Positions 61,035-61,577 of a DNA stretch of 64,000 nt are shown here, piece after piece. Under the pieces are notes generated by a model that saw only the letters and a list, made by a program, of their open reading frames with translations, did no database searches and had not been told where the DNA came from. Both the position numbers and the translations under genes were made by a program. Source of the DNA: Escherichia coli (GTDB taxonomy: Bacteria; Pseudomonadota; Gammaproteobacteria; Enterobacterales; Enterobacteriaceae); assembly GCF_050920415.1 (NCBI RefSeq), contig NZ_CP169309.1. One strand, written 5' to 3'. Position 1 is the stretch's first letter. Each line of letters starts with the position of its first letter.

Positions 61035-61577
61035 TATTATTGTCTCTCTGTATTCCTTCCCTACTCCTGTCTGACCCTGAAACATCACTGTTCAGAGTCG
61101 CTACCCGTCACGATAGACCGAAATCATTAAGATTCACGGCGCGCAATGCCTGGTCTACGGTGAGAAGACCGTTGCCTGGTGGCAGCTATCGACATCACGA
61201 ATGGCGTCTGTCCACGCCATACGTAGATTTCACTAGCACGGTAAACATGGTATTTACATGCATGGTTATGCGCATATAAGAATACTGTTTTTTTTCTTCC
61301 TCGAATGTTTTCGCAAAACACCAGGGGATTGTCAAAGCAAAACATCGATTTTTAGTACAACATGCCAGATATTCATTAACAGGGGCGTTTATTCATCATT
61401 TAATCGGCTTATAAAGCGGGAAATTTAAGTAGCAGAGGTGATAATGACTGGAGAATTTGACCTGCTTATCGATGCTGCCGATTGCACAAATTGTTAACAA
61501 AATCGTCATACTCTTTTTTTACGTCTGTAAATTCCCTACAATCCTGCCCATTGTCTGCCAACAACTATGGGGATCTC

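Follow-up and report, generated by a model that had tools for sequence, protein, structure and literature searches.

The intergenic region between the divergent genes lrp and trxB of Escherichia coli is, with high probability, an ordinary compound regulatory region of these two genes that contains no hidden gene. The region lies near the end of the window, by which we mean the whole stretch of 64,000 nucleotides that was analysed. Read on the minus strand from lrp outward, it would consist of a 5′ UTR of about 266 nucleotides, a sigma-70 promoter and an upstream block most likely carrying Lrp autoregulatory sites; beyond this block would come about 100 nucleotides of unconstrained AT-rich spacer, followed on the plus strand by a palindrome and by the trxB promoter with its leader of about 29 nucleotides. 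Judged by position and sequence, each conserved block in the gap is accounted for by one of these promoter or leader elements. The lrp leader is clearly structured, with two hairpins supported by covariation, and it is a platform for post-transcriptional control. GcvB would pair through its R3 region with two GACAG motifs: the apical loop of a distal hairpin holds the first, and the second lies just 3′ of a proximal hairpin. MicF and DsrA would pair at the lrp AUG.

Size and conservation of the lrp-trxB gap

The divergent gap as a whole, which we assign to neither strand, covers positions 61035–61577 and measures 543 nucleotides, between the lrp start codon (61034–61032, minus strand) and the trxB ATG (61578–61580, plus strand). 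A preliminary description of this DNA had reported a divergent gap of about 540 bp at this place, and its boundaries are exact. The genes at this end of the window are ftsK (56299–60405, minus strand), lrp (60540–61034, minus strand) and trxB (61578–62543, plus strand), then cydD. Inter-CDS gaps were ranked on the RefSeq annotation of the best-matching strain, MFDS1022581, which is collinear with the window save for one IS2 insertion. The lrp-trxB gap is the second longest of 47 (median 110 nucleotides), the largest being asnS-ompF with 601 nucleotides, and it is the longest of the six divergent gaps in the window (543, 314, 265, 135, 129 and 99 nucleotides), so that the earlier remark that it is among the largest non-coding gaps in the window holds. 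The IS2 copy of MFDS1022581 interrupts an NAD(P)H oxidoreductase gene at about 43,640 in the window and is absent from the window itself, giving a 1,335-nucleotide offset.

In K-12 MG1655 the gap is 544 nucleotides long, and over these 544 columns the window differs by three substitutions and one 1-nucleotide indel. The K-12 RefSeq record, which includes curated small proteins and sRNAs, annotates no feature inside the gap, and the annotation of the best-matching strain places no gene there. The gap sequence is present at an identity of at least 95% in 5,425 of 5,426 complete E. coli genomes. The gap query matched 5,432 places in the E. coli genomes, eight of them on records labelled plasmid, not chromosome.

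The same arrangement extends across the order. We fetched 80 Enterobacterales loci with an Lrp query, and trxB was also captured in 77 of them. Each of these 77 has trxB in divergent orientation upstream of lrp, at a distance of 429 to 851 nucleotides (median 546.5, window included). The length of the gap is not peculiar to one strain and is ancient. Its length is owed mainly to the lrp leader, which fills about half of the gap. In three Citrobacter genomes the gap reaches 617–618 nucleotides, against about 546 nucleotides in their relatives, which implies an insertion of about 70 nucleotides.

Conservation along the gap was profiled by column identity in an alignment of 46 Enterobacteriaceae sequences. 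From the trxB side, a trxB-proximal block (61577–61490; 76–89% identity) is followed by an AT-rich, weakly conserved spacer separating the two promoter regions (about 61386–61487, assigned to neither strand; 31–64% identity, 35–39% G+C) and then by a highly conserved block at 61380–61300 (84–97% identity). Within the leader, a moderately conserved stretch leads into a conserved block from −215 to −130 relative to the lrp AUG, and the final 65 nucleotides before the AUG are nearly invariant. A variable leader segment at 61104–61159 on the minus strand (−125 to −70; 36–48% identity) is cleanly deleted in about 12 genera, including Cedecea, Buttiauxella, Shimwellia, Siccibacter, Mangrovibacter and Entomohabitans. 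Where the segment is present, its sequence differs and a local hairpin tends to form, and it resembles a lineage-specific insert.

Promoters of lrp and trxB

The lrp core promoter was located at 61307–61335 on the minus strand. It combines a perfect −35 hexamer, TTGACA (61335–61330), with a spacer of 17 nucleotides and a weak, TG-extended −10 hexamer, GAAAAC (61312–61307; TG at 61315–61314), which matches the consensus at three of six positions. Its hexamers have the spacing and orientation of a sigma-70 promoter (16–18 nucleotides, correct strand). The columns of this promoter are 84–97% identical in Enterobacteriaceae, and its TTTGACAATC..TTTGCGAAAACAT elements are kept throughout the order, in Serratia, Pectobacterium, Dickeya, Providencia, Proteus, Morganella, Photorhabdus and Sodalis. 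A consensus promoter scan missed both the lrp and the trxB promoter, each of which has one weak hexamer, so that its results carry little weight in either direction.

We infer that lrp transcription starts near 61300, about 7 nucleotides downstream of the −10 hexamer. This would give a 5′ UTR at 61035–61300 (minus strand) of about 266 nucleotides here and 267 nucleotides in K-12; the 1-nucleotide deletion relative to K-12 falls within the leader. The placement draws on promoter geometry together with the leader length of 267 nucleotides that Wang et al. reportedly described in 1994. The leader is at least 179 nucleotides long, because a published GcvB site lies at −179. The presence in the gap of an lrp promoter with a long leader, which had been anticipated from the size of the gap, is borne out, the start of the leader being set by inference. 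At its 3′ end, a Shine-Dalgarno-like AGAGAGA (61043–61049, minus strand) sits inside an invariant purine-rich initiation region (95–98% identity). We also considered an N-terminal extension of Lrp from an in-frame GTG or ATG at 61088 and 61085, and rejected it: the ATG reads AAG in most genera, and indels of 1–2 nucleotides break the frame.

Directly upstream of the lrp promoter lies a conserved block, CTGGCATGTTGTACTAAAAATCGATGTTTTGC (61336–61380, minus strand), with 87–97% identity in Enterobacteriaceae. This block is probably the Lrp autoregulatory binding region. Matches to the Lrp SELEX consensus are uninformative for placing Lrp sites: with up to three mismatches, 108 were found in the window against about 77 expected, and the single weak match in the gap (61353–61367) does not rise above background. 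In the pig-faeces isolate CUPF06, an ISVsa5 element (IS4 family) interrupts the region immediately upstream of the lrp −35 hexamer, at the equivalent of about 61344, and separates the lrp promoter from the conserved upstream block.

On the other side of the spacer, the trxB promoter at 61514–61542 (plus strand) has a tract of seven T at the −35 position (61514–61520) and a −10 hexamer TACAAT (61537–61542). Its CTTTTTTTA-N-TTCCCTACAATC pattern is kept across the order, with 82–89% identity in Enterobacteriaceae, so that the expected trxB promoter is indeed found in the gap. The trxB start is predicted near 61549, which would leave a short leader of about 29 nucleotides (61549–61577, plus strand) with the Shine-Dalgarno sequence GGGGA at 61569–61573. 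A perfect palindrome, TTGTTAACAA (61491–61500, plus strand), is found upstream of the trxB promoter and is kept order-wide. It is situated about 40–55 bp upstream of the trxB −10 hexamer, and its Enterobacterales consensus is AAATCGTTAACAAC.

The neighboring gap between lrp and ftsK (134 nucleotides) contains a LexA-box-like sequence of the form CTGT-N8-ACAG, CTGTATGGATTAACAG, at 60484–60499, which is consistent with an SOS-inducible promoter for ftsK; LexA sites downstream of lrp have also been noted in a preprint.

Small-RNA sites in the lrp leader

Control of lrp by the sRNAs GcvB, MicF and DsrA is said to have been described by Holmqvist et al. in 2012 and by Lee and Gottesman in 2016. According to a 2025 review, the R3 region of GcvB (CUGUC) protects two GACAG sites in the lrp leader, at −179 to −175 and at −39 to −33, MicF and DsrA pair with lrp at the AUG and the early coding region, and an enhancer is located at −69 to −40 (PMC12152304). 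The same review describes the way in which the distal GcvB site acts on lrp as unexplained (PMC12152304). In the literature lrp is listed among the verified targets of GcvB R3, and a 2024 study found that an RNase E-dependent fall of lrp mRNA requires GcvB. Repression of lrp by sRNAs and the need for RNase E in the GcvB-dependent loss of its mRNA are taken from this literature, and what we computed is the complementarity, for which the K-12 GcvB sequence was used.

Both GACAG motifs were found at the expected positions of the window, 61212–61208 and 61071–61067, and the earlier statement that lrp is subject to sRNA control can accordingly be given coordinates. The upstream, or distal, site UGGACAGAC (61206–61214, minus strand) is a perfect 9-nucleotide complement of GUCUGUCCA in region R3 of GcvB. 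Its first eight nucleotides, UGGACAGA, are invariant in 46 of 46 Enterobacteriaceae, and the ninth base is C, T or G. The proximal site CAGACAGG (61066–61073, minus strand) is complementary to CCUGUCUG of GcvB; in many genera it reads GGCAG, and a G-U pair keeps the pairing. Taken together, the two sites complement GcvB 151–164 over 8–9 nucleotides.

Conserved structure in the lrp leader

The conserved part of the leader contains an interrupted hairpin of 53 nucleotides (61185–61237, minus strand) with the apical loop GGACAG at 61213–61208. The apical loop of this distal hairpin contains the upstream GcvB site, both in the RNAalifold consensus of 42 distinct sequences and in the single-sequence fold. 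Among the 42 sequences, 96.5% of the alignment cells are paired, and compensatory double changes affect 9 of the 20 pairs (46 cells). None of 500 shuffles reaches the observed values, and sliding the partner strand lowers the paired fraction to 22–45%. A covariance model built on the hairpin finds one match in the 64-kb window and one further Enterobacter locus, with no match among the non-Enterobacteriaceae loci, and it scores 105 bits on the sense strand versus 17 bits on the antisense strand. Just 3′ of the long hairpin, a small GCC-N4-GGC hairpin (61174–61183, minus strand) barely varies, and its support is weak.

In five Serratia loci, the lrp leader folds between about −140 and −204 from the ATG into a long hairpin with unrelated stems, which presents UGACAGACAGG in its apical region. 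This sequence is complementary to GcvB R3, and the hairpin was detected by motif search and folding only. The Serratia analogue suggests that what is maintained is the display of the distal GcvB site in a loop.

Nearer to the start codon, the proximal hairpin at 61073–61099 (minus strand) pairs GACUCUGA with UCAGGGUC around a conserved loop, AACAGUGAUGU, and coincides with the published enhancer. Across the order 90.2% of its cells are paired, versus 73.5% in shuffles, and compensatory changes occur in all five scored pairs. Its covariation score is 0.653 versus 0.353 in shuffles, a value reached by none of the 500. The conserved RNA structure in the region acts in cis, within the lrp leader. 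Of the follow-up that had been proposed for the gap, a covariance-model and conservation scan, one part has thus returned a positive result, namely a structured RNA, yet one inside the lrp leader; neither a conserved ORF nor an Rfam family emerged.

Candidate genes inside the gap

The preliminary description had pointed to two ORFs that overlap on opposite strands and had not called them genes. Both exist, and we agree that they are not genes. One has 79 codons and a TTG start (61040–61279, plus strand) and runs antisense to the lrp leader; the other has 72 codons and an ATG start (61127–61345, minus strand). That either of them, or a frame in the spacer, encodes an unannotated small protein is extremely improbable. 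The first 11–19 codons of the flagged ORFs are conserved, but these starts overlap the lrp initiation region and the lrp promoter, whose conservation is that of DNA or RNA elements, and further on the frames collapse. Among the 46 Enterobacteriaceae, the 79-codon frame ranges from 0 to 179 codons with a median of 25 (25 codons in E. albertii), and the 72-codon frame from 14 to 89 with a median of 30, the latter being conserved only in its first 19 or so residues, which are encoded by the promoter. E. albertii and a second E. coli truncate the two frames to 49 and 25 codons. Moreover, the ATG of the 72-codon ORF lies upstream of the lrp −35 hexamer and outside the lrp transcript; Pfam and NCBIfam searches of the ORFs in the gap returned no family match; the K-12 annotation, with its curated small proteins, offers no counterpart; and the spacer shows just 31–64% identity among genera. 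That the spacer, or the strand opposite the lrp leader, carries an independent sRNA gene is likewise extremely improbable. The large size of the gap and the G+C-rich, structured core of the leader would be compatible with such a gene, as would a promoter-like site at 61006–61034 (plus strand) that is directed antisense into the leader. Against this, the site is the lone match of a promoter scan in which 1.3 matches were expected, and it lies within lrp codons; a scan of positions 60400–62000 against Rfam 15 with E-values up to 10 gave chance matches only, the best being eukaryotic or viral families (E-values 1.9–9.2, far below gathering scores); a terminator scan of both strands of the gap found no terminator-like site; the covariance model favors the sense strand; and the promoter and leader elements already explain each conserved block. 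The suggestion that a gap of this size might host an undetected sRNA or small protein is therefore not upheld by Rfam, terminators, annotation, protein families or conserved frames.

A third alternative places a regulatory upstream ORF within the leader itself. A 21-codon ORF (61220–61155, minus strand), or a mini-ORF starting in the loop, would be translated in this account, and GcvB would block its translation, which in turn would control lrp. In favor of this account, 43 of 46 Enterobacteriaceae keep the ATG of the 21-codon ORF, the distal GcvB site is located 3–5 codons past the AUG and so within the window where sRNAs can block initiation, and the account would supply a mechanism for a site whose action is described as unexplained (PMC12152304). 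We nevertheless regard it as very improbable. The AUG is not preceded by a Shine-Dalgarno sequence and is base-paired in the distal hairpin stem, which forms in 96.5% of the alignment cells. In two of the three genomes without the ATG, changes in the opposite arm of the stem make up for the loss, and the third keeps a single mismatch; the two compensated genomes point to selection on structure, not on a start codon. Neither frame nor length is conserved: frameshifts set in about 13 codons downstream of the start, the ORF measures anywhere between 12 and 72 codons, and for this reason it was also rejected as a protein gene. In addition, the analogous Serratia hairpin, with its unrelated stems, lacks that AUG.

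A CU-rich motif and a possible switch

Downstream of the distal hairpin, the leader contains a CU-rich motif, GGUCUUCUC (61162–61170, minus strand), a candidate partner of the purine-rich ribosome-binding region. It is kept from Escherichia to Serratia, Pectobacterium, Dickeya, Hafnia and Edwardsiella, at a variable distance of about −80 to −140 from the AUG. In 45 of 69 leaders folded by partition function, the upstream partner ranked first for the segment from −30 to −7 is the motif itself or overlaps it, and in 34 the motif and the segment share at least three expected base pairs. Since both the motif and its purine partner are almost invariant, covariation cannot decide the pairing; there is one possible compensatory case (Edwardsiella, G:C to A:U via G:U) and one mismatch (Affinibrenneria), and two alternative purine partners are possible. 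We therefore put forward, as a hypothesis only, that the CU motif may pair with the ribosome-binding region. A local hairpin around the motif, GGUCU..AGACC, was rejected, being not conserved and lacking its 3′ partner in the genera with short leaders.

These elements permit a bolder reading, which we hold to be rather unlikely, in which the lrp leader is a conserved two-domain RNA switch and not a passive landing strip for sRNAs. The apical loop of the dedicated hairpin would expose the distal GcvB site, the downstream GGUCUUCUC would form a long-range helix with the purine-rich ribosome-binding region, and docking of GcvB at the distal loop would shift the equilibrium of this long-range pairing. 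The hairpin is well supported, whereas the long-range helix and the coupling of the two are conjecture. If true, the switch would account for repression from a site about 140 nucleotides upstream of the lrp ribosome-binding site.

Discussion

The content of the region, that is, the lrp promoter, autoregulation, a long leader and control by GcvB, MicF and DsrA, is already known in the literature. Our analysis adds the order-wide conservation of the promoters, the covariation that supports two hairpins and the location of the distal GcvB site in an apical loop, as well as the lineage-variable insert and the conserved CU motif; some of the structure may already be drawn in the primary paper. The lrp region of E. 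coli K-12 is the same locus: its GcvB sites, enhancer and AUG-proximal sRNA sites map onto the window, and nothing substantive differs.

Long 5′ UTRs at which several sRNAs meet are also found in the enterobacterial genes rpoS (DsrA, RprA and ArcZ) and csgD. Like these, lrp combines the long leader of a global regulator with several Hfq-dependent sRNAs and with folded elements near the initiation region. It differs from rpoS, whose sRNAs activate translation by opening an inhibitory hairpin. All known sRNAs of lrp repress, and one of the lrp sites lies about 140 nucleotides upstream of the ribosome-binding site (PMC12152304). Canonical GcvB targets such as dppA, oppA and gltI share with lrp the same sRNA, the dependence on Hfq and the possibility of pairing upstream of the ribosome-binding site. 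They use the G/U-rich R1 seed at C/A-rich enhancer elements, whereas lrp uses R3 (CUGUC), and, unlike them, lrp has two sites, the distal one offered in a hairpin loop. In Erwinia amylovora the orthologous gene is also repressed post-transcriptionally through its 5′ UTR, but there the leader was mapped at 103 nucleotides and the regulator is ArcZ (PMC6538786), compared with about 266 nucleotides and GcvB in E. coli; the Enterobacterales loci that we fetched included no Erwinia.

For genome annotation, the practical upshot is that a missing gene need not be sought in the lrp-trxB gap. For the biology of the leader, the covarying hairpins and the CU motif offer concrete features through which the role of the distal GcvB site, as yet unexplained, can be tested. 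Since a large part of the E. coli genome is under Lrp control, it matters how the level of Lrp is set.
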